Virus record (IMG/VR): IMGVR_UViG_3300047157_000186
Source of the DNA: a virus
Lineage: Duplodnaviria; Caudoviricetes
Strand: one strand, 5' to 3'
DNA: 64,000 nt
In this document: positions 11,270 through 58,668 of the stretch, piece by piece
How positions within the stretch are numbered: the stretch's first letter is position 1
Layout: every line of letters starts with the position of its first letter
The notes under the pieces: generated by a model
The model's database searches: none
Told to the model about the DNA's origin: nothing
Seen by the model: the letters and a program-made list of their open reading frames with translations, nothing else
Position numbers and translations under genes: made by a program

Positions 11270-12439
11270 ATGAGATTAGTAGAATCATTTAAAAATTTTA
11301 AGCTTTTATTAGAAGCCAACAATTCTCTTAAATTAAATGTTCCAAAGGATATTTTAGAATTGCATAAACTATTTAAACAAAATGGCAAGGAATTGTTTAT
11401 TGTGGGTGGTGCAGTGAGAGATGCATTGCTAGGTAAAAAGCCAAAGGATTTTGATTTGGCAACTGATGCGTTTCCTGCAGAAGTTATAGATATTGTTACT
11501 AACGCTGGTTACTCAACTACTGGAGAAGTTGGTCATCAATTTGGAGTAGTTATTGTAAATGTACCTTCGGATCCAGCGGGTGTTGAGATTGCAACATTTA
11601 GAGAAGATGTTGGAAAGGGAAGAAGACCAGATGCAGTGGAATATTCTACAATTGATAAAGATGTATTAAGAAGAGATCTAACAATTAATGCACTATTTTA
11701 TGATATGGGCAGAAAAGAGATTGTAGATTTAGTTGGAGGTTTAGATGATATAAAAAACTCAAAAATTAGAACAGTTGGTGTCGCCGCAGATAGATTTGCA
11801 GAAGATCCACTTAGAAAATTAAGGGCGTTGCGATTTGCAGGTAGAACAGGATCAAAATTAGAAAAAGAAACTGCAGATGCTATTTTAATCGATAATAGTT
11901 TAGAAGGTATTAGTTCTGAAAGAATTAGAGATGAATTTAAGAAATCTATTGTTTCTGCAAAATCAGCAAAGAGTTATTTAAACATGGTATCAGAATTTAA
12001 TTTGTGGTCAATCATGTTTCCATCTTTACAAATTAACGAAAAGTTTATTAACACTAACAATTGGATAGTACAGATTGCAATTCTATTTAGTAATAATGAT
12101 AATGATACAATACAGAAGGAATTAAATAAAGCATCGTTTACAAACGGTGAAATTGATTCAATATTATTCCTAAAGAGTTTAATGACGTTTGATATAAATG
12201 ATGTATTTAATTTACATAAACAATATATGAAGATTCAAATATCTTCTAAATTAGACACCAAAACTATTCTAGAATTTGCAAAAATTAATAAACTCGACAC
12301 TAAAACTTTAAAAGTGTTCTTTAAATATAAACCATCAACCAAAGGTGGAGATGTCATGAAAAAGTTTGGCTTAAAAGGATCTGCAATATCCGATAAGATC
12401 AATCAAATAGAAGCAGAGAAGTTCAGAAGTCTTATTTAG
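11270..12439 (+). CDS. cca: tRNA CCA-adding enzyme (class II nucleotidyltransferase)
   Basis: VGGAVRD.LLG..PKDFDLAT, RRDLTINAL, EDPLR.LRALRFA. Confidence 0.9.
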   Translation: MRLVESFKNFKLLLEANNSLKLNVPKDILELHKLFKQNGKELFIVGGAVRDALLGKKPKDFDLATDAFPAEVIDIVTNAGYSTTGEVGHQFGVVIVNVPSDPAGVEIATFREDVGKGRRPDAVEYSTIDKDVLRRDLTINALFYDMGRKEIVDLVGGLDDIKNSKIRTVGVAADRFAEDPLRKLRALRFAGRTGSKLEKETADAILIDNSLEGISSERIRDEFKKSIVSAKSAKSYLNMVSEFNLWSIMFPSLQINEKFINTNNWIVQIAILFSNNDNDTIQKELNKASFTNGEIDSILFLKSLMTFDINDVFNLHKQYMKIQISSKLDTKTILEFAKINKLDTKTLKVFFKYKPSTKGGDVMKKFGLKGSAISDKINQIEAEKFRSLI

Positions 12440-12505
12440 ATCAAATAAGTATTTTACAAGATATATACATTGTAGCATTATGCATAAAAAATACATTGTT
12501 ATACA

Positions 12506-12799
12506 ATGGCAAAAGAATTAAATGAAGACAGCGGAATTAAAGTTAGTGTAAAAACACTAATCGCAATAGCTGTGGCAATCACAACAGTGGTAAGTTTTTG
12601 GTTCGCATTCCAAGCTCAACTCGATGATATGAGAGATGAGATAGAAGCAGCTAAAACTCTACCAGCTCCTAACATTTCTAGAACTGAATATGAACTCAAA
12701 GATGAGTTAGTACGTTCTACAATATTAAATACACAAGAAGATGTAGAAGAAATGAAAGAGGATTTAAAGGCAATTGAAAAACATCTTCGTAACAGATAA
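12506..12799 (+). CDS. single-TM coiled-coil protein
   Basis: N-terminal hydrophobic helix followed by heptad-like region. Confidence 0.6.
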   Translation: MAKELNEDSGIKVSVKTLIAIAVAITTVVSFWFAFQAQLDDMRDEIEAAKTLPAPNISRTEYELKDELVRSTILNTQEDVEEMKEDLKAIEKHLRNR

Positions 12800-12800
12800 C

Positions 12801-13910
12801 ATGAAAAAACTATTATTACTTATTATCGCGTTGGTATCATTTAGTACTGCGGACGCACAGATTACAAAGAAGGTTAAGAAATTCTTTAAATACTCTACTA
12901 TTTATGGAGTTGCTGGAGAAGCACAACCACAAACTAGCACACAAAAAACTTATTTCGTAGATCAAGGTGGAGAACTATTTGATGTTACACCAGATGCTGA
13001 AACTAATTATTCTTATGGTTTTGGTATTAGAAAGGTTGCAAGATTTGATTATGAGAATAAACCTAATGCGTTCTATGATGGTACAGAAATCCAAACAGGA
13101 TTAAGTTCTAATATAGGTGCTGTTAAAGGTTGGGAATATAAATTCCAATGGGAATGGGCAAGACAGTTTGGTAATGAATACACAAGAGAAGATATATTTC
13201 TTAGATATTTAGGAGATAACTTTATCTTTAAACTAGAACAAATGCAAGATGGTCTTGCAGATTTGGATTACAGGGCAGTAGATCTTAGATGGAGAAAACC
13301 AATAGGTAAAAAACTTAACCTTTCTATCGGTGCTGCATTTAGAACACATAGACCTTATGGTTACTTACCAATTGCAGATTACTTAGATGATAATCCATGG
13401 TGGCAATTAGCATACGACAATGGTTACAATGATAACTATTATGGTATCGATTATGATAACGATGGAGAATTAGATAACTTTGATTTCTTTTGGAATGATG
13501 AAAATGGTGAGAGAGTTTCAGATACAGATTTAGATTTTAGAACTAATGTATTCGGTGGTATTGTAAATGACTTTAATAGAGAAAGACTTATACAAATTGA
13601 AGATCTTGGTACAATATCTCCAGTAATTGGATTAGATTTTTATCATTATTCACAAGATGGAAATAACTGGGCACACATTTACACTTCAGTTATGCCATAT
13701 CACCAACAGGTTATGGGTAACAAAGACTTTTCTTATGGTAAGTTTATTAGTGAAGGAGAAGATGCGCAATGGACTGATTTTACAATCGGTGCAATGACAG
13801 GATGGAAAATAACAAAGAAGTTAGGTGTTTTTGCAGAAATGAATTATCTACAATATTGGGATAGACAAGTATTTACTGCTAAAGCTGGCTTAAACTTCCA
13901 ATTTAGATAA
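12801..13910 (+). CDS. secreted protein, probable outer-membrane beta-barrel
   Basis: Signal peptide MKKLLLLIIALVSFSTADA, alternating aromatic strands, C-terminal AGLNFQFR. Confidence 0.6.
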   Translation: MKKLLLLIIALVSFSTADAQITKKVKKFFKYSTIYGVAGEAQPQTSTQKTYFVDQGGELFDVTPDAETNYSYGFGIRKVARFDYENKPNAFYDGTEIQTGLSSNIGAVKGWEYKFQWEWARQFGNEYTREDIFLRYLGDNFIFKLEQMQDGLADLDYRAVDLRWRKPIGKKLNLSIGAAFRTHRPYGYLPIADYLDDNPWWQLAYDNGYNDNYYGIDYDNDGELDNFDFFWNDENGERVSDTDLDFRTNVFGGIVNDFNRERLIQIEDLGTISPVIGLDFYHYSQDGNNWAHIYTSVMPYHQQVMGNKDFSYGKFISEGEDAQWTDFTIGAMTGWKITKKLGVFAEMNYLQYWDRQVFTAKAGLNFQFR

Positions 13911-13912
13911 TT

Positions 13913-14320: not shown

Positions 14321-14350
14321 TTGAAACTTTTTTAAAAATAAATCACCCAG

Positions 14351-14412
14351 ATTTTTTTATGTCATTTATTTGTGGTATATTAGTAGTATACTAATGGAGG
14401 TTAATACCTCAC
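14351..14412 (+). promoter_or_regulatory. class-1 promoter repeat with GAGGT/ACCTC leader hairpin
   Basis: TATATTAG at 14376. Confidence 0.7.
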
Positions 14413-14424
14413 CAAACACAAATT

Positions 14425-14825: not shown

Positions 14826-14846
14826 TATTAATCAAAACAAATAAAA

Positions 14847-16022: not shown

Positions 16023-16205
16023 ATGACTAAACATCGCCACGCTCGAAGAGAAGACGAATCAGTTACAAGTTGGATAGAAAGAATATCCTATAAAGATGAG
16101 AGTTGGCTCAAAAAAGCAAAAAGGCGAAGAAAGTTTAGATGGTATTATGATCTTAAGTTTTATATTCAATTAAAATTAATTATTTTTAAAAAGAAATTCA
16201 AATGA
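16023..16205 (+). CDS. small basic hypothetical protein
   Basis: Probable start MTKHRH at 16023. Confidence 0.45.
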   Translation: MTKHRHARREDESVTSWIERISYKDESWLKKAKRRRKFRWYYDLKFYIQLKLIIFKKKFK

Positions 16206-16879
16206 ACAAAATAGTAGTAATAGGAGACATTCACGGACACGATAGTTGGAAGAAACTTATCGAGTTAAATCCTGATGCTACAGAGTTTGTATTTATTGGA
16301 GACTACTTTGATTCATTCTCAATTCCACATGTAGAACAAATCTATAATTACAAAGAGATTATTGCATGGAAGGAATCTACTGATGTTAAAGTAACTATGC
16401 TGATCGGTAATCATGACTTTCACTATATGTCAGATTGTGGTGGAAGATATGGTGGATATAATGTATGGCACGCACCAGAAATTGGTGAACTCTTAAAAGA
16501 AACTAAAGAACATTTACAAGTAGCATATCAGGTAGATAAGTTTTTATTTACACATGCTGGCGTTTCGAAAGAATGGTATGACACCAATTTCCCAGAAGGT
16601 GGTAATATCCCAGAACAAATTAATGATCTTTGGTCTTATGATAAGAGATCGTTTAATCACAGTGGCATGGAAATGTATGGTAATTATGATGGTGAAGGTC
16701 CAATGTGGATTAGACCTCAAGCCCTAAGACGTAATCCTCTTAACGATACTATTGTACAAATCGTTGGACATACTAATATGTCATTAATTGACTATGATGA
16801 TAATCATTATTTTGTTGACGCACTCCCATATGAGTACATGACAATTAAAAATGGTGTTCCATTCATCCACAAATTATAG
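16202..16879 (+). CDS. calcineurin-like metallophosphoesterase (intact motifs)
   Basis: GDIHG, GDYFD, GNHD, THAG, GHT all present. Confidence 0.9.
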   Translation: MNKIVVIGDIHGHDSWKKLIELNPDATEFVFIGDYFDSFSIPHVEQIYNYKEIIAWKESTDVKVTMLIGNHDFHYMSDCGGRYGGYNVWHAPEIGELLKETKEHLQVAYQVDKFLFTHAGVSKEWYDTNFPEGGNIPEQINDLWSYDKRSFNHSGMEMYGNYDGEGPMWIRPQALRRNPLNDTIVQIVGHTNMSLIDYDDNHYFVDALPYEYMTIKNGVPFIHKL

Positions 16880-18691: not shown

Positions 18692-18799
<108 letters not shown>

Positions 18800-18806
18800 C
18801 GAAATT

Positions 18807-37573: not shown

Positions 37574-38767
37574 ATGAGATACTTCAAATTATTGCTCTTA
37601 TGTTTTATCCTGGCGACACCTATCGTCCATGCACAAACTACTACAGTAAACTTAAGGTCACTTAAGACTCATTATGGTGGGAATCAATCAGGTCAATATT
37701 ATACAGGTAATGCTAACTCGCACTCAGAATTTGACGCTATGGTTAATCTTGCCGATGGCGGTACTACACTCTATACATGGGGACCTATAGATATAACAAG
37801 TTACCAAGGCCCAAGAGGTGGTAATCATACTCCTTATCAACTATGGAATCCACCAAGATGGGGCAGTCAAAGATATGCAATTATCTATTCCGGTTGGTTT
37901 AAACCTAACAAATCAGGTACATATCGATTTAGAACTTTCACAGATGACTCACATGAGTTTATGATTAAAGGTATTGGTAAGACTAATGATATAGTTACTA
38001 AACATTATGGTTGGAATACATGGGCTTATGGTACGGCAACCTTAGATAAAGATACATGGTATGAGTTTGAATATAGAATTCAAAATTTTGGTGGTATAGG
38101 TGCTGCAAATTTTCAATATGAAATACCTGCTAACTATAATACAGGTCAATTTAATCAACTCAGTCCCAGTCATCCATTTGCAGAATGGTCTACTACTGAA
38201 CCTATTGACCCTATCACAGCATCTGGTTATATTAAAGGAGCAGAAGAACAAGGTATTGCAGGACAAACAGTTTACCTAAAGACACAGAATAAAAACCAAG
38301 TAGGTTTCTCATATACAACACAAGAAACTACAACAACAGATTCAAATGGATATTATTCATTTAATACTACGTTAGATTACAACGATTACGATTTTACAAT
38401 AGACATCGCTCCGACAATAGGAACGCTTACAACTTCAGATATTAACTGGTTTCAAGACAGATTACTATCAGATACAGTTAGTTCTAAAGATTATTGGAGA
38501 CTTGATGTAAATAATACAGGTTCATTTTCTGCCTCTGACATTTATCTAATGCACCAGAAGAGACAAGGTAACATTTCCAGTTACCCTGGTGGAGGACAAG
38601 AAATATGGAACACAAATTCCTGGCAAAACCCGACCATTTGGCCGGCAGTTGCTGCGGATTCAGACGACAAATCACAACTCTCCGGATACGGAGCATGGTC
38701 CCTCTTTGATTTAGCCAATGGAAATCAAACAACTTTCTATGTAATAAGAGCGGGTCATAAAAACTAA
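37574..38767 (+). CDS. secreted PA14-domain protein with Cna-B-like and dockerin-like modules
   Basis: Signal peptide; YSGWFKP..SGTYRFRTFTDDS; TTTDSNGYYSF; DVNNTGSFSASD. Confidence 0.7.
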   Translation: MRYFKLLLLCFILATPIVHAQTTTVNLRSLKTHYGGNQSGQYYTGNANSHSEFDAMVNLADGGTTLYTWGPIDITSYQGPRGGNHTPYQLWNPPRWGSQRYAIIYSGWFKPNKSGTYRFRTFTDDSHEFMIKGIGKTNDIVTKHYGWNTWAYGTATLDKDTWYEFEYRIQNFGGIGAANFQYEIPANYNTGQFNQLSPSHPFAEWSTTEPIDPITASGYIKGAEEQGIAGQTVYLKTQNKNQVGFSYTTQETTTTDSNGYYSFNTTLDYNDYDFTIDIAPTIGTLTTSDINWFQDRLLSDTVSSKDYWRLDVNNTGSFSASDIYLMHQKRQGNISSYPGGGQEIWNTNSWQNPTIWPAVAADSDDKSQLSGYGAWSLFDLANGNQTTFYVIRAGHKN

Positions 38768-38783
38768 AAATAATTAAAAACAA

Positions 38784-39878
38784 ATGAAATTAAAAAACAT
38801 TCTTCTAACACTGGCTTTAGCTATCAGTACAATGACTGTCTTCGGGCAGACGACTGCGCCTGATGCAACAAAGCCCTATGTTATTTTTGATTCAACGTAC
38901 ACTTTAGAATCTACTGGTTCGAGCTCAAACACTGAGTTTGATATTTACTATGATAACACGTCTGGTAATGCAGTTAAAGGTATTCAGTTTTCGTTTAATT
39001 ATGATAACACAGTATTTGATGAACCAACAGTAGCATATAACAATACATCTGGCCCAGCTGGATATTTGTCGTATGATGTTGATTCAACAAACGGAGTAGT
39101 AAAAGTAGTATGGGTTTATACTGGAGCATCTACCACTTTCGATATGATTGCTGGTAATATGTTTACAGTAAACGCACCTTTTCTATCAAATTACACAAAC
39201 GGAGCAGTTGCTGACGTAGATTTTACTACTGATCTTACTGCTTATTATGTAAAGGCTGATGGAACAGATGGAGCTCTAGGTACACAAGATAATGGTGGTA
39301 ACTTTATAGAACCTGCATTTGATTATGTAGCAACTATCTTAAATAGTGGAACAAATCCAGCTGAATCTATTCCTGTGATTTTACAGAAATCATCAGATGG
39401 AAATACTTGGACAGATGTAACTACAGTAACAACGGCAGCAGACGGAACAGCAACATTCTCAGAAAGCTTAGACCAATCTTACTGGCAAATTAGACTTAAG
39501 ATTGCAAGTGGACTAGATGCAAGTACGGCACTATCAACTGCAGATGCTAATATGATCGCACAAATTGCTGCGGGAGTACAATCAGCCTCTGGTATTCAGT
39601 TCTATACTGCAAATCCAAATCAAGCTACTGGAATTACAGCATCGGATTCTTACTTAGTATTCTCTAGATTAGCACAAGGTAACTCAAGTTACGCTTCTAA
39701 TCCAGATGTATTATTCTTTACTGAAGCACAATATAATACTATTAATGCTTCAAGTTCAGATCAGTCAAGTTCAATTCCAGGACTATCAGTATTTTTATCT
39801 CCACAAATTAATGGAACTACCACTGGTAATTTCTACCTATTAATATTAGGTGATGCCAACGGTACAGGTTTAAATTAA
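38784..39878 (+). CDS. secreted cohesin-domain protein with Cna-B and dockerin-like modules
   Basis: VKGIQFSFNYDNTVF, TTAADGTATF, GITASD, GDANG. Confidence 0.65.
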   Translation: MKLKNILLTLALAISTMTVFGQTTAPDATKPYVIFDSTYTLESTGSSSNTEFDIYYDNTSGNAVKGIQFSFNYDNTVFDEPTVAYNNTSGPAGYLSYDVDSTNGVVKVVWVYTGASTTFDMIAGNMFTVNAPFLSNYTNGAVADVDFTTDLTAYYVKADGTDGALGTQDNGGNFIEPAFDYVATILNSGTNPAESIPVILQKSSDGNTWTDVTTVTTAADGTATFSESLDQSYWQIRLKIASGLDASTALSTADANMIAQIAAGVQSASGIQFYTANPNQATGITASDSYLVFSRLAQGNSSYASNPDVLFFTEAQYNTINASSSDQSSSIPGLSVFLSPQINGTTTGNFYLLILGDANGTGLN

Positions 39879-39879
39879 T

Positions 39880-40617
39880 ATGAGGAATATACTACTAACA
39901 ATATTAGTATTGTTCACCACATGTGCACAATCTCAGGTCGTATTTAACGTACCTGAGATTGATGTGCCTGTTAGTGAGTATATTAATCTGCCTGTAGAAA
40001 TTGAAACTTCAGGCGAAGATGTTGGTAGTTTAGAATTTGCATTGAAATATGATCCAGACTATTTAGAGTTTGTATCGATTACTGTGACACCTAAAGCTCA
40101 AGAGTGGTTAACATATACTATGGACTGGGAAGGTGAAACTGTTAGATGGGGCGGTTATGACGCTTCCTTCGGTAATTTTACTATAATTAATACAACAGAA
40201 TTATTTACGGTAAGATTTAGGGTTACTAATCAAGATTGGGACACAATTCCAATTACGATTGGTAGAAAAACAGCTGGCACAGAATTAGGATGGGACATTG
40301 ATGTTGAAAACACAGATGGTTACGTGAATAAACGATCAATGCCATTTGATACTAGGCCAACTGATGGTATTTATGGAATTGTTTATCCAGTTCCAACAAA
40401 AGGTCCAATTACATTTGACCTGACAGTACCAGACAATGGCGATTATATTGTCAGAGTATTAAACTATGGTGGTTCAGAATTTTTAAAAGAAAGTAAAAGA
40501 TTCTTTGCAGGATGGGTACAATTTCAAATGGATCTATCTTCATTACCACAAGGTGTTTATCTCTTACAAGTTACTAATGGCCAATTTGTTAAAACATTTA
40601 AAACCATAAAAAAATAA
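39880..40617 (+). CDS. cohesin-domain protein with T9SS type-A CTD
   Basis: VGSLEFALKYDPDYLEF; VYPVPT...DLSSLPQGVYLLQV...KTFKTIKK. Confidence 0.75.
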   Translation: MRNILLTILVLFTTCAQSQVVFNVPEIDVPVSEYINLPVEIETSGEDVGSLEFALKYDPDYLEFVSITVTPKAQEWLTYTMDWEGETVRWGGYDASFGNFTIINTTELFTVRFRVTNQDWDTIPITIGRKTAGTELGWDIDVENTDGYVNKRSMPFDTRPTDGIYGIVYPVPTKGPITFDLTVPDNGDYIVRVLNYGGSEFLKESKRFFAGWVQFQMDLSSLPQGVYLLQVTNGQFVKTFKTIKK

Positions 40618-40624
40618 CTTAATA

Positions 40625-40816
40625 ATGAGAAAGAAGATGATTGCACTGTCGTTAAGTTCAATACTACTATTTGGATGTGGAGCTACAAAGCCTACTTCAG
40701 ATGGATGTTGCGAGAAAAAAGTACTAACACAAAAAGAAGCTGATGAGAAGATCATGAATGGTCTACTATTTACATTAGTAACTTATATAATACTTAGTAC
40801 ATTAAAAATAAACTAA
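40625..40816 (+). CDS. small lipoprotein / membrane protein
   Basis: LLFGC lipobox plus C-terminal TM. Confidence 0.55.
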   Translation: MRKKMIALSLSSILLFGCGATKPTSDGCCEKKVLTQKEADEKIMNGLLFTLVTYIILSTLKIN

Positions 40817-40821
40817 GAAGA

Positions 40822-41085
40822 ATGTCAGATAAAAAAGAAAACAAATTCTTTTCTGAAATTAAAAATCAAATCATTGCCGGCGTTGGCTTAGTCATCGCCG
40901 CTGGGTTTGGTATCTTTATTACTAACATGGAAGGTTGGTTATCTCCAAAAAAGGAACCTACTCCAGTTGTAGTACAAGATAGTATTCCGGCTCAACCACA
41001 AATTATTATTAATAATATAGTGGAAAAGAAGGAAGCACCAAAAGTGATTGTTAAAGAAAAGAAAGAAGACGAAATAACATGGTAA
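40822..41085 (+). CDS. single-TM hypothetical protein
   Basis: N-terminal TM helix. Confidence 0.55.
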   Translation: MSDKKENKFFSEIKNQIIAGVGLVIAAGFGIFITNMEGWLSPKKEPTPVVVQDSIPAQPQIIINNIVEKKEAPKVIVKEKKEDEITW

Positions 41086-41783
41086 GATTATTTACACTGG
41101 TCTTTTTGTTAGTTACCTTTACAGTTAATGCTCAAATAGGTAAAACTGAGACTGAAGACTATAAAGCTAGTTTTGAACAAAAAGCAGACATCGATGAGGT
41201 ATCTGACTATATGTTAGATTATCAATTGCCTATTCAAGTATTAAATATAGGCTTTACACCAGAACTATATGAATTCTATCCAGAATTGAGAGAGAATAGA
41301 GTTGGTTTAGGTGTTAGTAATATTACTCTGTCTTATTTAGAATGGACAGATAGATTTCTATTTACAGAAGATAAAGAAGAAATCAAACAGAGAATGGTTA
41401 AGCAACATAAAGCTGCAGCAAAAGGTATATCGGCAAATGATATTAAAGTTGTAGGTAATGTTGTGTTAGCAGAGTATTTTGTATATGTAGAAATATATGA
41501 CTATTCAGTATCTGAGGAAGAAGAAGTTACAGTTGATGGAGTAAAGACTGTACTAAAAACTATTATTGGTATGCAAGTAAGATTTGTTAATGCTGAAACT
41601 GGAACTATTTTCACAGGCAGTGGAAGTGGTGAAGCAGTCACGATTAAAAGATCAAAGATTGGTGAAGACAATGTTGTCAAATTCAATCAATCAACAATTG
41701 GTATTGCAACTAAGAAAGCCCTAGAATCTGGAACTGCTCGTATCGTAAAAAGAATGATAAAGCGTGGGATATTTGAAGAATAA
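41079..41783 (+). CDS. CsgG/HfaB-like protein
   Basis: GLGVSNI..S.LE.T.RF, GMQVRFVNAETG.I..GSGSG. Confidence 0.65.
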   Translation: MVRLFTLVFLLVTFTVNAQIGKTETEDYKASFEQKADIDEVSDYMLDYQLPIQVLNIGFTPELYEFYPELRENRVGLGVSNITLSYLEWTDRFLFTEDKEEIKQRMVKQHKAAAKGISANDIKVVGNVVLAEYFVYVEIYDYSVSEEEEVTVDGVKTVLKTIIGMQVRFVNAETGTIFTGSGSGEAVTIKRSKIGEDNVVKFNQSTIGIATKKALESGTARIVKRMIKRGIFEE

Positions 41784-43137
41784 AATAATAACAGTTCTGT
41801 TATTCTTAGCACCACTAGTCAGTTATGGCCAGTGGTCTTATACGTTTACAGATCCATGTACTCTGAATCAACAAACAATTCAAATGGGTTCAAGTGATGA
41901 GATTGCCTTAAATTATTTTGGCAATGTTCAGACATTTACACAACCAGATTTTACAGATGGTACTTTTGATGCATGGATGAATTTAGTTACTCAGGCTAAT
42001 TCTGCGAATCCATGTCAAGCGTGTAACTCAAGTTATTACAAATAATACAAATGCTATAATAGTTCAAAATACTATTACAGTAATTACAAATATAATGAAT
42101 GTGTTAGGTGGAGATATGTTACCACAAGCACTTTCATCATCAGGTGTTCCAGTAGCAGAGGCTATTGATAATGCAAACTAAAAAAGAAGAAAAAAAAGAA
42201 AAAGAAGAAATCAGACGAACAAAGTTCTAACTCTAATAAAGAATCTGAAGATTCTAATAGTGAATCTAATAGTTCTGATAATAAAAATAATGAGAATAGT
42301 AATTCAGAGACTAGTTCGGAACAATCCAATGGCTCTGGTTCTAATCAAACTAGTGGTGGACAAGGTAATACAGGTGGAAGTGGCACTTCAACAGGTAGCG
42401 CTGAAACAAAAACTGAAGATGAATCAAAAGAAGGCGCTTTATCTATGTCTTTAGCTAATTCTGTTTCAAATGCAGTAGATGGTGGAGAATCAGATAATAA
42501 AAACAGAGGTTCTTTAATTGCATCAGGTGATATTGTAGTTATTGACAACCAAGATAACTCAAATGGACGTCAAGTAAAAGTAGTAGGTTCTATTACTAGT
42601 GCTAATACAAAAAAGAGCAGAGTTCAAGGAGCACTATTTACATATACAACTGTAACTAATGATTTTAGTTTAACTTTCTATAAATCATGGATTAATCCGA
42701 ATAGAACATTTAATCTAGTAGGTGCAAATACTACAATGACAGATTTTAATCAAAATCATTTAAACACAACTACTGTTTTAGAATCATTTAAGTTTGGTAA
42801 GAAGAAATTCACTGGAATGGCTGGTTTAAATTTTACTATAGGTAAATTAGGTAAAAGAGAACTACAAAATCTATCAGCAGTTACTGGAGTTCATAGAAAC
42901 TTTAGAGTTAGTCCAAAGATTACAACATCGGCTTTAATTCTAGGAGTCTATTCTCCATTCACACAATACTATGAAGGTCAATGGTGGGATCCAGGTGTTC
43001 TTATAGTTCCATTTAGTTCTTGGGATATACAAATTACAAAAACATTTAAATACAATATCAGTTTTACTGGAGTTTGGCAATCAGGTGGAAATGCCCTCAA
43101 CTATCAAATACTAACTGGTGGTAAAATTAGATTCTAA
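41764..43137 (+). pseudogene. large secreted/outer-membrane protein split by frameshifts (real or sequencing error)
   Basis: Frame 1 to ~42021, frame 2 from 42023 to 42178, A-rich stretch, frame 1 from 42211 to 43137 ending in a barrel-like GGKIRF. Confidence 0.6.
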
Positions 43138-43138
43138 T

Positions 43139-43579
43139 ATGAAAAAGCTATTAATACTCCTATTCTTAATTCCAACTATGTTATTCGCACAAGATTGTTA
43201 TACTGTTAAGAATGTAACAACAGAAGTTGAAATGGAAGAGATCAGCCAAAGAAGAATTACATTTGGTATTAAACAAATGATGGAAGATGTTATTTCAGAC
43301 AAGTATGATTTATGTTTAGATGGTAAGCCAGTTGAAGTTAAAGTAACTTCAATAGAAGCACCAACGACTGGAATATCGATAGGACCGTGGACTAAAGTGA
43401 GTAAAAAAACAATAGTCACTTTACTAATCTATATGGATGATAATGTAATTGAAGTTGAAGGAATGGCTAAATCTACAGTTAAAGCTACATTCATCGATTT
43501 ACAAGATGAGAACTTACCTTTTAATAAGACAGTATTTGCGTCTGCAATCAAGAAAGCTATCGAGAAATCTCTAAAATAG
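43139..43579 (+). CDS. secreted hypothetical protein
   Basis: Signal MKKLLILLFLIPTMLFA; last gene of the island. Confidence 0.65.
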   Translation: MKKLLILLFLIPTMLFAQDCYTVKNVTTEVEMEEISQRRITFGIKQMMEDVISDKYDLCLDGKPVEVKVTSIEAPTTGISIGPWTKVSKKTIVTLLIYMDDNVIEVEGMAKSTVKATFIDLQDENLPFNKTVFASAIKKAIEKSLK

Positions 43580-46495: not shown

Positions 46496-47095
46496 ATGAA
46501 ATACGTTAAAAGATATGAAGCTTATTTAAATGAAGCAAGAAGGCCAGGTAAACCATATCATGGGTCTAAAATTCTTGTATTTGATCTTGATGATACATTA
46601 GTTATATCTTCTGCAAAAATCAAGGTGTGTAATAAAAAAACAGGTGAATGTTATTCTCTAACACCTGAAGAATTCAATACATATGAAAAAGGTGAACATG
46701 AAGAATTAAACTTTGACGAGTTTAAATCTTTAGAGATTATGAAAGCCGGTAAATTAATAGAATATTATCTTAAAATATTCAAAGAAGCTTATAAGTCAAA
46801 ATTAGCAGTAGGAATTGTTACGGCAAGAGATGATCGTAAAATGATTCATAAATGGCTAAGAGAACACGTAGGATATAGAATTGATTATGAATTAATATTT
46901 GCAGTTAATGATCCTATTCACAAATTCAAAGGTAATATATCTGATCGTAAAAAAGCAGCATTCAAAGAACTTATAGAAATGGGTTACAATGATATGCAGT
47001 TTTATGATGATGACGATGCTAACCTAAAATTAGTAAAATCATTAGAAGACGAATACGATGGGATAAATATATCAACAATAAAAGCAATAAAATAA
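46496..47095 (+). CDS. HAD-family phosphatase (Pnkp-phosphatase-like) with CTS-like leader
   Basis: FDLDDTL, TAR, FYDDD; N-terminus MKYVKRYEAYLNE. Confidence 0.75.
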   Translation: MKYVKRYEAYLNEARRPGKPYHGSKILVFDLDDTLVISSAKIKVCNKKTGECYSLTPEEFNTYEKGEHEELNFDEFKSLEIMKAGKLIEYYLKIFKEAYKSKLAVGIVTARDDRKMIHKWLREHVGYRIDYELIFAVNDPIHKFKGNISDRKKAAFKELIEMGYNDMQFYDDDDANLKLVKSLEDEYDGINISTIKAIK

Positions 47096-47096
47096 T

Positions 47097-48710
47097 ATGA
47101 GTACATTCGGAGATATTAGAAATAACTTTCAGATTGCAATGAACAGAAAACAAGCTGAAATAAATGAGAAAGTCAAATATAATTACAAAAGAGAATTTTT
47201 TAACTCAGCATATACTGATTGGATGAAATCTGCTTCTTATCCAGGTGCGATCACTAAATTTGGTACAGGTGAACAATTAAGAGCAGATTTAGGGGTAGAA
47301 CCAACTGACAATACAACTCAAATGTTAATAGCATCTGGTTTACCTAAAGATTATTTTGAAATTGAAATACAATATCCTGGAGATGACAAATCACTTTCCG
47401 GAACATTTCCAACCGTAGTTGTTACGATACTAAAAGATATTAATATTGGAACTGAAACTTTTTTAAAAGGTGAAGAATATCTTATTGTAAGTAATGTGGC
47501 TAAAACAAAAACCGGAGAAAAAGCAATAATAGGAAGAGGTAAATTAACACCTAAGGCTCTAGGACTAGATGGAAAGGGAGCTACTTATGGAACAATAGAT
47601 ATTATATGTAAAGCAGCTATTGATGCAGTTGAAAAAAAATACGGTAACACCTTTCCTAAACCATACATAGACTATATTAAAGATCTAGTAGAGTATACTA
47701 GAAATCAAGATACATATAAAATTCCCGGGAATTTAAAAACATTTCTTAAAGAAGCAGGTCAAAGTTTTGAATTGGATTTTGGTAAAAATATACAAGAAGA
47801 ATATGGAATAGACTCGGTTTCATTAGCAAAAATAGCAAATGATTTTGGAGAAATATTAGGAGGTATATTTTTATTCAGTGCAGTTAGCGATCCTGGGACG
47901 GGCTTAAGTTTTCCACAAGGAGCAAATGCTGCGTTAGTAGATTTTCATTTTGATGGATGGGACATATCTTCAAAAGCTGGTAAAAAAGGAGGAACTCCAT
48001 CTATCGTCACGATGTGTGAAATAATACATAATAGAGTTTCTGATAAGAATTCCGAACAGAATTTTGTTTTAGACAAGTCTGAAAGAAAAACATATGATGA
48101 TATAATCAAAGTGATTGCTGATCCTAAAACAAATGGAGGATATACTAAAGAGCCTAATCAAGGAAGACAATCAAATGTATGGCTAACAAATATTGTTTTA
48201 GCAAATAGTCTTTTATATAACAATAAAACTTCCGGATATAGGTCTATTTTAGATAAATTAGGAATAAACAATATGGAAGTTTCTAGGCATATACTTCATG
48301 AAAAAGTAGATGAACTATTTAATAGAGATCAAGGAGAATGGTATAAAATAATGGATGAATTTTGGAGCAAAACAGGTTCCAGGCCTGATGGTTGTAAGAA
48401 TGAACAATCAGCAGTAACATATTATGCTAAAAGACTTAAGAAAAACGACCAATATAGGTTTGGTGTTATTTTTTATCCTATTTCTCAGGAACTAGTAAAA
48501 ACTATAAATAGCAATAAAGTATATGTTGACGGTTTATCTTCTATGGTAAACAGAGTCAGTTCAGTTCAACAGTTGTATTTATTAATAGGTGTAAAATCAA
48601 CAGGCATTCAATTTAAAATTAAAGATTTTGCAGCCGCAAGGTTTCAGTTTAGCGCAGGAACTGGGGCAAATGAGCCATTTAATAAAAACATAGGGCTTGA
48701 ATCTAGATAA
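47097..48710 (+). CDS. large hypothetical protein, possible PD-(D/E)XK nuclease core
   Basis: FGEILG...FP..AN.ALVDF...DISSKAG pattern. Confidence 0.4.
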   Translation: MSTFGDIRNNFQIAMNRKQAEINEKVKYNYKREFFNSAYTDWMKSASYPGAITKFGTGEQLRADLGVEPTDNTTQMLIASGLPKDYFEIEIQYPGDDKSLSGTFPTVVVTILKDINIGTETFLKGEEYLIVSNVAKTKTGEKAIIGRGKLTPKALGLDGKGATYGTIDIICKAAIDAVEKKYGNTFPKPYIDYIKDLVEYTRNQDTYKIPGNLKTFLKEAGQSFELDFGKNIQEEYGIDSVSLAKIANDFGEILGGIFLFSAVSDPGTGLSFPQGANAALVDFHFDGWDISSKAGKKGGTPSIVTMCEIIHNRVSDKNSEQNFVLDKSERKTYDDIIKVIADPKTNGGYTKEPNQGRQSNVWLTNIVLANSLLYNNKTSGYRSILDKLGINNMEVSRHILHEKVDELFNRDQGEWYKIMDEFWSKTGSRPDGCKNEQSAVTYYAKRLKKNDQYRFGVIFYPISQELVKTINSNKVYVDGLSSMVNRVSSVQQLYLLIGVKSTGIQFKIKDFAAARFQFSAGTGANEPFNKNIGLESR

Positions 48711-53384: not shown

Positions 53385-53415
53385 GATATATAGATTATAA
53401 AAAATATATTTTATT

Positions 53416-53718
53416 ATGAAACACACAAAAATGTTTGAAGACTTTATAAACGAATGTGAATGCGGAGGTAATTGCTCATGTGAATCTTCTAAAAAACAAC
53501 CTATTGTAGAAGCGAACGCTGATGGTACTATTTCAGATGACGAAGATGAGAGAAGAGAAGAACTAGAAATGGAAGTATATAATGAAGCAAAATCATTTGC
53601 AGAATCTGTAAAAGAAAGAGCTTATGAAATAGGTGGAAGCTTTAGAGGACCAGGTATTCAATCTGACGTAACTAAGCAAATCAAAAAAGCGTTTAAGGAT
53701 GCTAAATTTAAATTATAA
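53416..53718 (+). CDS. CTS-leader protein
   Basis: MKHTKMFEDFINE. Confidence 0.65.
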   Translation: MKHTKMFEDFINECECGGNCSCESSKKQPIVEANADGTISDDEDERREELEMEVYNEAKSFAESVKERAYEIGGSFRGPGIQSDVTKQIKKAFKDAKFKL

Positions 53719-53723
53719 TTATT

Positions 53724-54074
53724 ATGAAACACGTAAAACTATTCGAAGATTTTACTAATGAAACTTCTCATTTAACTAAAAAAAGCAGAGCTGGTCTTTC
53801 TAAAAAAGAAACTTTAAAGGTTGCACAGAAATTTGCAGATGCTCTTACAAAATTAGACGGTAAAGAATACACTGTTAGTGATGATTATGAAGAGGACTCA
53901 TTCGACCTAGATATTGACGGAGACGAATATGCAGGTGGTTCATATAACATTAATTCTGATGGTACTGTAGTTAATATGGCAGTTTGGAATAGTTCTAATG
54001 AATCTCCAGTATATGGTGATAAAGATGATGATGTTAAAACCATTATTAAAAAAATAAAAAAATTAAACTTTTAA
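53724..54074 (+). CDS. CTS-leader protein
   Basis: MKHVKLFEDFTNE. Confidence 0.65.
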   Translation: MKHVKLFEDFTNETSHLTKKSRAGLSKKETLKVAQKFADALTKLDGKEYTVSDDYEEDSFDLDIDGDEYAGGSYNINSDGTVVNMAVWNSSNESPVYGDKDDDVKTIIKKIKKLNF

Positions 54075-54076
54075 TT

Positions 54077-54385
54077 ATGAAAAAAGTAAAATTGTTTGAA
54101 GAGTACGTGAGCGAGTCAAGAGGTGATTTTCAAATATATCACAGAACATACTCTTCAACTATAGACGAAATTGAAAGATACGCAGCAGTAAAGGGTTATC
54201 ATCTTGATAGTGAGGAATATGGTAATGCATATGTTGATGCATTCTTTAAACCAAAAGAAGGTGCAACTAAAAAAGATACATTAAGTTTATATAAAAACGA
54301 CAAAGAACAAAAGAAAGCTTTACATGTTCAAATATACGGTAGAAGTGGAACAGCTGGATATGAATTAAATATGTACATTAATTAA
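54077..54385 (+). CDS. CTS-leader protein
   Basis: MKKVKLFEEYVSE. Confidence 0.65.
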   Translation: MKKVKLFEEYVSESRGDFQIYHRTYSSTIDEIERYAAVKGYHLDSEEYGNAYVDAFFKPKEGATKKDTLSLYKNDKEQKKALHVQIYGRSGTAGYELNMYIN

Positions 54386-54396: not shown

Positions 54397-55425
54397 ATGG
54401 CAAAAGTATACACAGTATGGGGATCTAACCCAGAAAAAGGTAACCGTTTTGATAAAGCTGAAGAATGGATAGCAGCTTTATTTGAATCTGAAGAAGAAGC
54501 AAACGACTTTAAAGAAGCTGAAAGCAAAAATTACAAATTTATAGAACAGACTATTTATGATACTAATAAGGGTATACGTGTAGCTAGTGGTTTTCATAGT
54601 GCTAGAATTTTTTGTGAAGATATGACTAAAAACAAGGCTAAAAAAGAATTACTAAATTTAAACACTAGGTGTTCAGCATACTTTAATAATCCTATAGAAG
54701 CCGGAAGTTACGTTAAATTCGATAAAAATGGATTTGTTGATGGTAAAGGATATGATTTTTATTCCAATGAGGATAATAAAATCCAAGAATCTAAAAGGAC
54801 ATTAAAATCCTTTGTAGAGGTAAAGTTATTTGAAGAGTTTATAAACGAAGCAAGACAAGCACCTGCTAAGAAACTATTTAAAATGATAGTTAATGGTAGT
54901 ACTTCTGAAATTGAAGGAGTTAAAATATCTAAAGATATGGCTCAAGCGGCATTAGATTGGTTTGATAGATCTACTTACGCTAGAAAATATGAAAAGCAAG
55001 TTAAGACTGCTGGTATGGGCGCTGTAGCTCCACTAATCTTTGGAGATAATTGGGGTATTAAGAAAACTATTTCCTCTAAACTTAAAACTGAATTTAAAGA
55101 ATTACAAACACAGTATAAAAGAGCGGTAACTGAAAGTGTTAATGAATCAGCAACTGATTTATTAGCCGATGAAATTGATGATGCAAAAGTATATGATGCT
55201 TTTTCAGACGGTCAATCAGTAAATGCTAGATCAACTGCTAAAACATGGGACGATGGAGTTCCTGTATTAAAGTATATTGCTAGAGCTTCTAAAAAAAGTG
55301 TTAAATTACCCAAAGAATTTAAAGTAGTAGATGATACTAAATATGGATGGTGGTATTTTTTTAGTGCAGGAAAATGGCATGGCATCCAACAAAAAGATTA
55401 TGGAACACCTCCATTTGAATACTAA
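54397..55425 (+). CDS. multi-module protein with internal CTS-like motif
   Basis: Internal VKLFEEFINEA. Confidence 0.65.
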   Translation: MAKVYTVWGSNPEKGNRFDKAEEWIAALFESEEEANDFKEAESKNYKFIEQTIYDTNKGIRVASGFHSARIFCEDMTKNKAKKELLNLNTRCSAYFNNPIEAGSYVKFDKNGFVDGKGYDFYSNEDNKIQESKRTLKSFVEVKLFEEFINEARQAPAKKLFKMIVNGSTSEIEGVKISKDMAQAALDWFDRSTYARKYEKQVKTAGMGAVAPLIFGDNWGIKKTISSKLKTEFKELQTQYKRAVTESVNESATDLLADEIDDAKVYDAFSDGQSVNARSTAKTWDDGVPVLKYIARASKKSVKLPKEFKVVDDTKYGWWYFFSAGKWHGIQQKDYGTPPFEY

Positions 55426-55466
55426 TAATAGTAAATCGTATTTTAAAATAATGGAAGGAGACAGTA

Positions 55467-55703: not shown

Positions 55704-55715
55704 ATAATAAACATC

Positions 55716-56507
55716 ATGTTATTAATTTCTAACAGAGGTAATATTAATGGTCCTAATTCACTTTTAGAAAATACACCAGATTATATAGACTCAACGATAG
55801 ATCAAGGGTATAACGTAAAAATAGATTTATGGTATATTCATGATAAATGTTTTTTAGGACAAGATGGTCCTAAAAATGAAGTTTCATGGGAATGGATTAT
55901 TAAAAATGCAGATTATTTATGGGTAAATTGCATGAATACATCAACATTTTCATTTCTACTAGAAAATGCCAAACCACTAAATTTTTTTTATAATAAATTA
56001 GATTCAATAGCAATGACTTCTCAAGGATTTGCATGGTCTAATAACAATGATTTTTCAAAAGGCACAATAGTCTATAATACAGATGCAATTGAAGGTGTAT
56101 TAGGTGTATGTTCAGATACTGTATCTAAATGGTCAAAACAGATAGCCATATGTTTTTATGGTGAAGCTGGTCTGCCTAACAAGAAAACCATAAAGAATCA
56201 TAAGGATAATATGATAACTCCTCTAACAGAGTTGGGATATCATCTGGAATACTATGGCTCTAAACGATTAAATCACAAAGAGAATGATCTTAAATTTAAT
56301 AAGATATATAATTTTAAAGGATTACGTTCTCATTTAGCTGATAACGAGAAAGAATCTGATGACTTGGATAAAACTCACATTGCTTCAATATATGAAATGA
56401 TAGGTTCTCATCCATATGAAACAGCATTCTTTATACGTTGGGACCAAAAGTTAACAAGCACAGAGATAATTGATCATATAAAAACATACGATAAAAATGA
56501 AAATTAA
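55716..56507 (+). CDS. GDPD/PLC-like phosphodiesterase homolog, catalytic residues substituted, plus C-terminal extension
   Basis: ISNRGN..GP...ENTP, VKIDLW, LGQD, WVNC in place of ISHRG, VEIDVW, LGHD, WIHC. Confidence 0.6.
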   Translation: MLLISNRGNINGPNSLLENTPDYIDSTIDQGYNVKIDLWYIHDKCFLGQDGPKNEVSWEWIIKNADYLWVNCMNTSTFSFLLENAKPLNFFYNKLDSIAMTSQGFAWSNNNDFSKGTIVYNTDAIEGVLGVCSDTVSKWSKQIAICFYGEAGLPNKKTIKNHKDNMITPLTELGYHLEYYGSKRLNHKENDLKFNKIYNFKGLRSHLADNEKESDDLDKTHIASIYEMIGSHPYETAFFIRWDQKLTSTEIIDHIKTYDKNEN

Positions 56508-57834
56508 AAAAACATTTAAACAATTTAATTTAGAATCAATCAATGAAGGTCAATTCTCATGGATTACTTATGATACTGATGTACAAATAGGTTCTGAAAG
56601 AGAAAACACTATTGATGTATACATGTTTGATAACGAAGGTAATCAATGGCATGAAAAGAAATATGAAGGTTATGGCGTATTTGGTAACATGGACTATTAT
56701 GAGTTATTAGCCAAAATGAATGGTTATACAGAAGAAGACTTAGAAAATAAAGCAGTACTTAAAGCTATTAGAGCAATGGGTAAAGCAGAAATGAGAGATA
56801 TTGGTATTACTTTAGCTTTCGAACCTAAGAAATTAAAAACTAAAGCAAAAGGTAATAAAGTCCTATTCCCTGCATTAGTTGAAAATCCAAAGTTTCCATG
56901 GAAAAGACATGACTTTACTGAAGAAGCAGAAACTGATCCAAATCAATCATGGTATCAAGAACCTGAGTATGATGATTATGAAGATGATGACGATTACGAA
57001 CAAGGTTGGTATGAATCTAATAATTTATTTCCTACATTTGATGATTATACAAATATCAACGAAAATAAATTTGACGGTATTGCAGATTTAGTAAAATCTT
57101 TACATTTCGAAATCGATCCTAAAACTGCTGAAGAAAAAAAGATTGAAATAGGTTACAGACAAGGAGAAGTTACAAAGCGTAAACAAATCGAAGGTGGTGA
57201 ATATTCTTTAAAAAGATTTAGAAAAGAAGTTAAATATGGTGATGGAACTTATTTAGGTGTATTTATACCTGGTTCTTATGATGCTGCAGTCTCTTCATTA
57301 GGAGATGGACCACATGCAAAAAAGGTTAAGAAAGTAAATTGGAACCAAAGAAAATATGACAAATGGATTTCTGATTTAGCATATGATAATGACGGTGGTG
57401 GACAAGATTCAAGTTATGGTTTTGAAATGGCACAAAATGCTAAATTTGAGCCAGGACTTATTGCTTTTGTTAAAAGAAGTAATAGAGGTGAAGATCCATT
57501 ACAAAGAATTCAATGGGACATTGAAGCTGCAATGGAATCAGTAGTCATTAATGTTAATGAAGCTAAAGTAAGTTTAGAAAAACTAAAAGAATTTGTATCT
57601 AAGCATTTGAGATTCGTAAGTACTTCAGATGAATTTGATGGAACAGAAGGCGGATTATGGGCTTCTGCTGAAGATGCTGATATGTATAAAGGAAGAAGAA
57701 TTTACGATTATTACTCTGAAGATCACAAAAATTACACATTCGGTGTACTCAATTCATGGGAAAAAGAACTAAACAAAAGAGGATATTATAGTGAATATTA
57801 TGACGCAGGTACAGTGATGATCTGGGAAGAATAA
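56497..57834 (+). CDS. multi-module protein with CTS-like leader
   Basis: MKIKKTFKQFNLESINE; internal INE and VNE junctions. Confidence 0.65.
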   Translation: MKIKKTFKQFNLESINEGQFSWITYDTDVQIGSERENTIDVYMFDNEGNQWHEKKYEGYGVFGNMDYYELLAKMNGYTEEDLENKAVLKAIRAMGKAEMRDIGITLAFEPKKLKTKAKGNKVLFPALVENPKFPWKRHDFTEEAETDPNQSWYQEPEYDDYEDDDDYEQGWYESNNLFPTFDDYTNINENKFDGIADLVKSLHFEIDPKTAEEKKIEIGYRQGEVTKRKQIEGGEYSLKRFRKEVKYGDGTYLGVFIPGSYDAAVSSLGDGPHAKKVKKVNWNQRKYDKWISDLAYDNDGGGQDSSYGFEMAQNAKFEPGLIAFVKRSNRGEDPLQRIQWDIEAAMESVVINVNEAKVSLEKLKEFVSKHLRFVSTSDEFDGTEGGLWASAEDADMYKGRRIYDYYSEDHKNYTFGVLNSWEKELNKRGYYSEYYDAGTVMIWEE

Positions 57835-57858
57835 TATTTTAGTAAAATTATTTAATCT

Positions 57859-57893
57859 AAAAAGAGGTACTTTTAAAGGTACCTCTTTTTTTT
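57859..57893 (+). terminator. intrinsic (bidirectional-type) terminator
   Basis: AAAAAGAGGTAC-N8-GTACCTCTTTTT plus TTT. Confidence 0.85.
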
Positions 57894-57927
57894 ATGATAT
57901 ATAGATTATAAATCACAGTTAACTATT

Positions 57928-58668
57928 ATGAAGAAAATAAAATTATTTGAACAATTTATTGATGAAGGTGTTCATGATCAAGGAATTCTTAAGGCATTCT
58001 TTATGGCAGGTGGACCAGGTTCTGGTAAATCATATGTTGCTACAGAACTTTTTAATTTTCCAAAAGGAGTAGTAAGTTCGGTGTCATATGCAACAGGATT
58101 GAAACTAGTCAATAATGATAATGCGTTTGAAGCAGGATTAAAAAAAGCAGGTTATAGCCCTGCTGATTTATCTAAATTAGCCAAAGATCCAGAAGAATGG
58201 GAAAAAGTAATGGTAATCAGAGATAAAGCTAAAGGACTTACTAAAAGAATGCAAAATAATTACTTAGGCGGAAAATTAGGTCAAGTAATTGACGGTACTG
58301 GTAAAAACTTTGATAAAATAAAAGGACATAGAAATTTATATCGTGATATGGGATATGATTGTTATATGGTATTTGTAAATACATCATTAGATATTGCATT
58401 AGAGAGAAACAGAATGAGAGAACGTAAACTTGAAGACAAGATGGTTGAAAAGATGTGGAAAGAGGTTCAAGATAACTTAGGTAAATTTCAAAAATTATTC
58501 GGAGCAGGTAATATGTTAATTGTAGATAATTCTGAATATGGAGGTGATATTTTAGCTCAAATAGAAAAACAAATTGCTAAACAAATTTCTAAACCAATTA
58601 AAAATCCACTAGGAAAACTTTGGATTAAAGGACAATTAGAAAATAAAGATAAAAATAAACCATTCTAA
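57928..58668 (+). CDS. P-loop kinase (Pnk/zeta-toxin/AAA_33-like) with CTS-like leader
   Basis: GGPGSGKS, VIDGT, ALERNRMRER lid; N-terminus MKKIKLFEQFIDE. Confidence 0.78.
   Translation: MKKIKLFEQFIDEGVHDQGILKAFFMAGGPGSGKSYVATELFNFPKGVVSSVSYATGLKLVNNDNAFEAGLKKAGYSPADLSKLAKDPEEWEKVMVIRDKAKGLTKRMQNNYLGGKLGQVIDGTGKNFDKIKGHRNLYRDMGYDCYMVFVNTSLDIALERNRMRERKLEDKMVEKMWKEVQDNLGKFQKLFGAGNMLIVDNSEYGGDILAQIEKQIAKQISKPIKNPLGKLWIKGQLENKDKNKPF

Follow-up and report, generated by a model that had tools for sequence, protein, structure and literature searches.

In phage T4 the internal proteins IPI-III carry a capsid targeting sequence (CTS; MKTYQEFIAE) and the packaged protein Alt has a propeptide, both of which are removed by the prohead protease gp21. 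Prohead proteases of this type cut after Glu. T4 also encodes the polynucleotide kinase-phosphatase Pnkp (pseT), which acts with RNA ligase 1 against the anticodon nuclease PrrC; we know of no evidence that T4 Pnkp is itself packaged. Bacterial Pnkp, the Pnkp1-Rnl-Hen1 RNA repair complex of Capnocytophaga and archaeal PSTK likewise all act on RNA or tRNA ends. Here we analyse a 64-kb stretch of viral DNA (IMG/VR record IMGVR_UViG_3300047157_000186; hereafter the window) in which a probable CCA-adding enzyme, a HAD phosphatase and a P-loop kinase all begin with a short leader peptide that resembles the T4 CTS. We propose, with a probability of roughly 0.45, that these proteins are a capsid-tagged kinase, 3′-phosphatase and CCA enzyme that would be injected to mend tRNA ends. 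The repertoire, and the proposed role against tRNA-cleaving defences, resemble the RNA-repair sets of jumbo phages (Pnk, PKN-HAD or 'Swiss-army-knife' HAD, a CCA-adding enzyme and Rnl1, Rnl2 or RtcB) described by Iyer, Anantharaman, Krishnan, Burroughs and Aravind (2021; PMC7824862), for which no N-terminal capsid-loading tag or virion delivery was described. These sets and the T4 CTS are each known; we found no published account that combines them, and no report of packaged CCA or Pnk enzymes in the literature.

The leader, M-K-x-[IV]-K-x-F-E-x-F-x-x-E, opens the open reading frames (ORFs) that start at 46496 (HAD phosphatase), 53416, 53724, 54077, 56497 and 57928 (kinase), and a divergent form of it opens the CCA enzyme gene at 11270. 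At least seven genes of the window therefore carry it, on proteins that are otherwise unrelated. A pattern scan of the minus-strand ORFs of the window found none, and a match of a loose regular expression to ORF 19589 is doubtful. Across 24 distinct proteins from the window and its relatives the consensus is 13 residues long, M-K-[HK]-[IV]-K-L-F-E-[QED]-F-[LVI]-N-E, with L, V or I at position 11 (T in two proteins) and Glu at position 13 in all 24. Conservation drops sharply at position 14, directly after this Glu, and the codons for Leu, Phe, Lys and Glu vary synonymously, which argues for selection on the peptide and not on the DNA. When residues 1-10 were searched for as a degenerate DNA pattern in the related contig G001, there were 16 matches on the coding strand, none on the other strand and none in a reversed control. 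The leader is an add-on to the HAD, CCA and kinase proteins. Many HAD homologues start directly at the catalytic strand and a subset has the leader; the CCA enzymes of close relatives have a variant, M-x-L-x-x-F-x-x-F-x-L-L-x-E/A (here and below a slash follows the final Glu), that other CCA enzymes do not have; and in the predicted structure of the kinase the leader is a low-confidence helix detached from the fold. Internal copies also exist. One homologue, P0142, contains a complete internal leader (MKHIKLFEQFMNE), and a 342-amino-acid ORF of the window (54397-55425, plus strand) has an internal leader core, VKLFEEFINE/A (residues ~141-152), between two parts, so that its arrangement is fused or polyprotein-like, as if two cargo units shared one frame. 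To judge from these sequences, tagged units can be joined in series.

Like the T4 CTS, the leader lies at the extreme N-terminus, is 10-13 residues long, has an aromatic-x-E-F-hydrophobic-x-E core and ends in hydrophobic-x-Glu, which is the cut motif of the prohead protease. The two share the pattern [FY]-[EQ]-E-F-[LI]-x-E, over a peptide too short for a statistical test of homology. As in T4, the leader is carried by unrelated cargo that includes small genes in tandem, and it occurs in a lineage whose head genes include a gp21-type protease and a gp23-type capsid protein. The small genes of the window are three in number and unrelated (100, 116 and 102 amino acids; 53416-54385, plus strand; leaders MKHTKMFEDFINE, MKHVKLFEDFTNE and MKKVKLFEEYVSE), in a layout that resembles that of the T4 internal-protein genes. 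In contrast with the T4 CTS, the leader has a longer consensus (MKxIKLFExFxNE), RNA-end enzymes as cargo, internal or polyprotein-like copies and a protease fused to scaffold, and its cleavage and its role in packaging are predicted. No match to the leader peptide strings was found in the literature, and we did not identify a cultured phage that carries the canonical tag.

The head genes of this phage fall outside the window and were read in relatives. These are viral contigs that are themselves partial, covering 43-76% of genomes that would be ~280 kb when whole. A gp23-type capsid protein (PF07068) is present in all five related contigs, and a gp21-type prohead protease (PF03420, above cut-off) in two of the three relatives searched, G001 and G002. 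The protease domain lies within a ~640-amino-acid open frame in which it is fused to scaffold, the same layout that Tenacibaculum phage PTm1 has in a protein with the annotation 'prohead core scaffolding protein and protease'. The protease-scaffold proteins are rich in potential cut sites, with 37-39 hydrophobic-x-Glu sites against ~13 expected (~2.7-fold); in two of three such proteins (that of G002 and that of the more distant, cultured PTm1) [ILV]-N-E occurs nine times against 0.85 expected, a count reached in none of 2000 shuffles. The capsid protein of the relatives begins MANLINE/S...GINE/S, and a small leader-bearing gene adjoins their protease gene, a position held in T4 by the core proteins gp67 and gp68. 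Both the sequence and the position of the leader are what would be expected of a T4-type CTS.

The three enzymes had been named in the original prediction, and motifs together with Pfam and profile matches confirm them. The HAD phosphatase (46496-47095, plus strand; 199 amino acids; leader MKYVKRYEAYLNE, followed by Ala) is of the Pnkp-phosphatase type and has the motifs DLDDT, T109-A-R111, K152 and D171-D172. Among 50 homologues there is no variation at D30, D32, R111, K152 and D172 and almost none at T34, T109 and D171. No Pfam family scored above cut-off and in PHROGs there was a match to phrog_415, 'polynucleotide kinase' (2e-11); against the PDB a single-sequence search gave nothing useful and a profile search nothing significant. 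The predicted structure has a predicted local distance difference test score (pLDDT) of 92.4. Its eight best structural matches (VIA) are all Pnkp phosphatase domains (Z 15.5-13.6), from T4 Pnkp (Z 15.5, root-mean-square deviation 2.3 Å over 131 of 142 residues) to Capnocytophaga Pnkp1 (Z 13.6), the second-best family; the next HAD enzymes reach at most 13.2. T4 Pnkp (1ltq) is also first in Foldseek. A weak profile alignment to T4-type Pnkp (E 5e-4) pairs T-A-R with S-G-R, the Lys residues with each other and DDDD with DD. The protein shares with T4 Pnkp the DxDxT, (S/T)-x-R, Lys and DD elements and differs from it in a ~50-residue beta-hairpin insert after motif I. By predicted fold and catalytic motifs it is closest to a Pnkp-type phosphatase, and activity on RNA ends is a prediction from the model. 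Its stop codon abuts the start of a 537-amino-acid ORF (47097-48710) for which no function emerged from Pfam, PHROGs or the protein atlas.

The kinase (57928-58668, plus strand; 246 amino acids; leader MKKIKLFEQFIDE, followed by Gly) belongs to the Pnk/PSTK clade of P-loop kinases. GGPGSGKS, D64 and the lid R160-N-x-x-R164-x-R166 are invariant in its orthologues, and the invariant residues K34, S35, D64, R160, N161 and R164 align with residues of T4-type Pnkp. Orthologues occur in the T4-like pelagimyophages HTVC008M and Melnitz (44-46% identity; the Melnitz protein begins MKTFAELQE/G) and, more weakly, in the jumbo phages Atu_ph07 and RsoM2USA. In Pfam the kinase scored above cut-off as AAA_33, and a single-sequence search of the PDB gave nothing useful. 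A profile of ten orthologues had PSTK as its best match both in the PDB (6.5e-4) and in NCBIfam, and its alignment with T4-type Pnkp (hhalign; 94.6% probability, E 7e-8) spanned the whole kinase domain and placed K34/S35, D64 and R160-N-x-x-R164 on the catalytic residues. The predicted structure (pLDDT 83.8) gave Z scores (VIA) of 14.6 for PSTK, 13.9 for Clostridium Pnk and 11.5 for T4 Pnk, with guanylate kinases at 12-13 and zeta toxin at 11.7. Archaeal PSTK and the bacterial Pnkp of Clostridium thermocellum are thus its best structural matches; unlike the proteins described here, these two and Capnocytophaga Pnkp1 are cellular, have no leader and keep other partner domains (metallophosphoesterase, ligase, Hen1). 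The P-loop Lys and Ser, the Asp base and the R-N-x-x-R lid are as in T4 Pnkp, whereas the two activities are on separate genes, Arg38 is missing and identity of the kinase and HAD proteins to T4 Pnkp is very low (13-20%). By motifs, profile and predicted fold the protein is closest to a Pnk-type kinase, with 5′-OH polynucleotide kinase activity as the corresponding prediction. R98 and K102, which are invariant and basic, might substitute for Arg38.

The third enzyme is a class II tRNA nucleotidyltransferase of 389 amino acids (11270-12439, plus strand) with an N-terminal extension of ~15-19 residues that is a divergent form of the leader (MRLVESFKNFKLLLE, followed by Ala), and with no HD domain. 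Some 42 residues precede its GGAVRD motif, against ~22 in the untagged enzyme of Atu_ph07. It has class II head and RNA-binding domains, with matches to the PolyA_pol head (PF01743, 5e-32) and to PF12627 (6e-7) in Pfam, and the class II motifs GGxVRD...DxD, RRD and EDxxR can be seen in its translation. Its two NCBIfam scores, 182 bits for the PcnB subfamily and 178 bits for the CCA equivalog, are similar and both below cut-off, and the alignment is full length only with the CCA model, the Bacillus-type NF009814. From these matches it is a probable CCA-adding enzyme. The window offers such an enzyme possible substrates. Eight tRNA genes, most of them without an encoded CCA, lie at 2284-3990 (plus strand; Rfam/ARAGORN), and a tRNA-Ala(UGC), also without CCA, at 18726-18800 (plus strand; Rfam/ARAGORN). 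Rfam counts nine in the window and ARAGORN eight. CCA is encoded in three of the nine (Arg, Lys and Asp), ambiguous in Leu (A/CCCA, the slash here marking the gene boundary) and absent from five, so that the earlier figure of six tRNA-like genes out of nine lacking CCA is right by the Rfam boundaries. The ninth tRNA-like gene, at 3238-3314 (plus strand), is found by Rfam (31 bits) and missed by ARAGORN, and is followed by CCT instead of CCA.

No RNA ligase was found in the window, as had been stated: its only ligase is an ATP-dependent DNA ligase (ORF 8383-9678), and tblastn with the Rnl1 proteins of relatives gave no match. A search for such a ligase elsewhere had been suggested. An Rnl1-type ligase lies near the CCA gene in two relatives, G001 and G006; neither protein has the leader. 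The ligase gene of G001 (74 bits) has the CCA gene on one side and the kinase gene on the other, and that of G006 is 3 kb from the CCA gene, the distance to the CCA gene in these two relatives being 3-5 kb. Four kilobases 3′ of the CCA gene of the window is an untagged calcineurin-like metallophosphoesterase (16202-16879, plus strand; PF00149, 1.5e-13). In bacterial Pnkp a calcineurin-like fold serves as 2′,3′-cyclic phosphodiesterase and phosphatase. To judge from its family, the phage protein might be either one more enzyme for end healing or a protein phosphatase.

Gene linkages in related viruses bear on whether the three enzymes work together. A long kinase homologue, P0243, holds CCA (370-574), HD (742-827) and kinase (880-1036) domains in one protein; in five groups of viral contigs the kinase gene lies ~2 kb 5′ of a multi-domain CCA-HD ORF; and in the contig L039 the gene of a HAD homologue that begins MIKLKDLLLE starts within the end of a CCA-HD gene. 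Kinase, HAD and CCA enzyme are hence linked by fusions, overlapping genes and neighbourhood. Together with the leader, the head genes of relatives, the Pnkp-type folds and the virion homologue described below, these links partly support the overall reading offered in the original prediction. Its idea of a Pnkp split in two holds in so far as both halves are closest to Pnkp domains by predicted fold and motifs, but the two genes are separated by 10.8 kb, and no partial contig of a relative showed both; 'split Pnkp' is a fair description of what the kinase and HAD models look like, with their pairing as a hypothesis. A blastp survey of 120 long kinase homologues revealed no kinase-HAD fusion. 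We rejected the kinase-CCA fusions as a clean 'Rosetta stone' because NMNAT-like and other domains are present in these long proteins too. Further fusion partners among the kinase and HAD homologues include a Pol-beta nucleotidyltransferase and others, and CCA-HD proteins also occur with NMNAT-like domains; the fusions may in part reflect concatenated cargo or NAD-related chemistry. ORFs of 1400-1800 amino acids in several contigs (L054:1-5346, L050:2575-7020, L040, L044, L047 and L048) combine an NMNAT-like HIGH nucleotidyltransferase, an HD domain, a CCA-adding enzyme and parts with no assigned function, with a kinase gene and a GH108 lysozyme gene just 5′. From their composition, these ORFs may be multi-enzyme cargo proteins that are processed by the protease.

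A homologue of the kinase has been found in virions. The kinase domain of gp53 of Agrobacterium phage Atu_ph07 (AUZ94865.1, 778 amino acids) is 38.9% identical to the kinase protein P0003 (E 2e-35). Masses computed from the sequence records (14.36, 87.07 and 56.49 kDa) match gp50, gp53 and gp54 in Table S5 of the Atu_ph07 paper, and gp18 and gp20 were mapped by accession. In that study mass spectrometry of purified virions identified gp53 from 31 unique peptides (45.5% coverage) in bands 2-13, with a peak in band 9, the band in which proteins of ~18-22 kDa peak. A peak at ~20 kDa for a precursor of 87 kDa points to a processed virion protein. The protein has a short N-terminus, MKWNDLNE/A, that is similar to the leader and ends in LNE, and it is divided into four parts (L079:1754-4090) by VTE/G, NLTE/LFDT and NLNE/LFDT, the kinase domain beginning after the first of these (...VTE/GVNDK). 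Its two C-terminal parts look like repeats, and its N-terminal part has R...STS-like motifs that recall ADP-ribosyltransferases. In contrast to the kinase of the window, gp53 is a four-part protein, and Atu_ph07 is a 490-kb Rak2-like phage of Alphaproteobacteria. The Atu_ph07 CCA enzyme, gp18, has no N-terminal extension and is absent from the table of virion proteins, which fits tag-dependent loading.

Starting from the genes, their motifs and predicted folds, the leader, the head-gene context of relatives and the gene linkages, we infer packaging, cleavage and RNA substrates in the following model. The 13-residue leader would dock cargo proteins to the scaffolding core of the prohead, and the prohead protease would clip it after the final Glu, as with the T4 CTS. 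Mature kinase, HAD phosphatase and CCA enzyme would then be ejected into the host with the DNA, where they could heal broken tRNA ends by converting 5′-OH to 5′-phosphate, removing 3′-phosphate and adding CCA back. Such healing would precede any expression of phage genes, and later in infection the same enzymes could mature the phage's own CCA-less tRNAs.

A number of observations weigh against this model. Some concern the tag. The leader of the CCA enzyme departs from the consensus, and the absence of untagged gp18 from Atu_ph07 virions leaves the tag as the sole argument for packaging of a CCA enzyme. The strict DNA pattern of the leader was not found in the cultured phages PTm1, Melnitz and HTVC008M, and nor was a T4-type CTS pattern. 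The Glu-Gly that precedes the kinase domain is kept even where this domain is internal, and may in such cases belong to the fold instead of marking a cut site. Others concern function. The best fold matches of the kinase exceed nucleotide kinases by only 1-3 Z, Pfam also scores it as Zeta_toxin-like, and no equivalent of T4 Arg38 is present, F67 being aligned at this place by hhalign. Both kinase and HAD homologues are also fused to NMNAT-like (PF01467) and NUDIX domains. Lastly, besides the distance between the HAD and kinase genes in the window, none of the five partial related contigs has the two together.

One explanation for the functional part of these data is that the tag does load the capsid but that the kinase (a nicotinamide-riboside, NAD or zeta/AvrRxo1-like nucleotide kinase) and the HAD protein (a nucleotidase) act on small molecules, in NAD+ or nucleotide salvage or in host takeover, with the CCA enzyme as separate cargo. 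Fusions of kinase homologues to PF01467 (HIGH/NMNAT-like), PF01909 and NUDIX, and of HAD homologues to PF01467 and NUDIX, would fit this, and HIGH-NTase and P-loop-kinase fusions of jumbo phages have been read as NAD salvage (PMC7824862). In some kinase homologues the Zeta_toxin match equals that to AAA_33, and the missing Arg38 and the small lead over GMP and UMP kinases point the same way. Even so, the best structural and profile matches of the kinase are the RNA-end or tRNA kinases PSTK, Clostridium thermocellum Pnk and T4 Pnk, all of the top eight for the HAD protein are Pnkp phosphatase domains, and linkage to CCA-HD genes recurs; as PF01467 is found in CCA-HD proteins too, the fusions may reflect no more than shared cargo proteins. 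We regard small-molecule substrates as unlikely. A different objection is that the leader has nothing to do with capsid loading, being instead a recombination module or a tag for translation or assembly, and that the enzymes carry out ordinary cytoplasmic tRNA maturation and RNA repair. Many jumbo phages have sets of Pnk, HAD, CCA enzyme and Rnl for which packaging is not claimed (PMC7824862), half or more of the tRNAs of this phage need CCA addition, the Rnl1 proteins of relatives have no leader and the Atu_ph07 CCA enzyme is missing from virions. It is less easy to reconcile with selection on the peptide instead of the DNA, the sharp boundary after Glu, the likeness to the T4 CTS and to the protease cut motif, the leader gene beside the protease gene and the processing in virions of a kinase homologue, gp53, with a similar short N-terminus ending in LNE. 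We consider this explanation improbable to a similar degree.

The remaining alternative is that a packaged kinase and phosphatase heal ends or nicks in the DNA of the phage's own genome at entry, and not RNA. T4-type and bacterial Pnk phosphorylate DNA ends, PDB entries with single-stranded DNA are among the matches, and the phage encodes the DNA ligase at 8383-9678. DNA repair would nevertheless leave the linkage with CCA-adding/HD enzymes and the Rnl1 neighbourhood unexplained, and we found no precedent for it in the literature searched; we think it very unlikely indeed.

The remaining genes of the window provide some context for expression. The octamer GATATATA has 12 sites on the coding strand against one on the other strand, including those at 2414, 4867, 11258, 12460, 37494, 44928, 49549, 53385 and 57896, and most are 12-80 nucleotides 5′ of a gene start. 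It precedes the CCA gene (by 12 nucleotides), the array of small leader genes and the kinase gene, and is probably, on sequence and position, a class of phage promoter. Late activity would be conjectural; the octamer is absent upstream of the capsid genes of relatives. At the kinase it opens a promoter-like 17-mer (GATATATAGATTATAAA; 57896-57912, plus strand) that ends 15 nucleotides before the ATG, and an identical second copy (53385-53401, plus strand) lies before the small leader-gene array. Directly 5′ of the 17-mer of the kinase there is a terminator-like hairpin (AAAGAGGTAC...GGTACCTCTTTTTTTT; 57860-57895, plus strand), so that the kinase looks like its own transcription unit. The gene directly 5′ of the kinase (56497-57834, plus strand) encodes a leader-bearing protein of 445 amino acids (MKIKKTFKQFNLE) with no assigned function; for the other tagged proteins, too, Pfam, PHROGs and the protein atlas were uninformative about function.

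The window has a G+C content of 30-38% and nearly all of its genes on the plus strand; besides the tRNA cluster it contains many small genes with no assigned function and several encoding secreted proteins with signal peptides of Bacteroidota style. Its exact HAD protein is present on 188 public contigs, the longest of 249,819 bp, and two clusters of near-identical HAD proteins have labels at NCBI, one 'Flavobacteriales bacterium' and the other 'bacterium'. The nearest capsid proteins in GenBank to those of the relatives are from an uncultured 462-kb phage, Lak megaphages and phages of Chryseobacterium, Tenacibaculum and Flavobacterium. The source is a marine jumbo phage of ~250 kb that is abundant and uncultured and has a T4-type head, as read from the head genes of relatives, and its host is probably a member of the Flavobacteriales. 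The products of a run of genes at 37574-43579 (plus strand) have signal peptides of Bacteroidota type, which end in ...AQ or ...GQ, an unusual phage cargo that hints at the host phylum. Adjoining the tRNA cluster is a gene for a sigma-70 family (extracytoplasmic function-like) factor with regions 2 and 4 (1431-2036, plus strand). At the other end of the window, starting ~2.2 kb 3′ of the kinase gene, a protein of >1032 amino acids (60904-63999, plus strand, open at the window end) has collagen triple-helix repeats (PF01391, 2e-26) and is probably a fibre.

It is generally assumed that a phage must express early genes to counter tRNA-cleaving systems such as PrrC, RloC and PARIS-like nucleases. 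If our proposal of a packaged tRNA end-healing set is correct, repair capacity would be present at time zero, and injected anti-defence cargo would comprise a new class in addition to T4 IPI and Alt. The published virion proteome of Atu_ph07 makes the idea of tag loading testable by re-analysis. The leader would also give a simple sequence rule with which to predict virion-delivered proteins in very abundant uncultured marine phages, and it could serve as a portable tag to load foreign proteins into such capsids. A wider and slightly more tentative suggestion is that an abundant group of ocean jumbo phages preloads enzymes by means of a portable, clip-off tag and tag-linked polyproteins. The set would be changeable, and here would amount to a complete tRNA end-healing kit, which may neutralize tRNA-cleaving abortive infection from the moment of injection.

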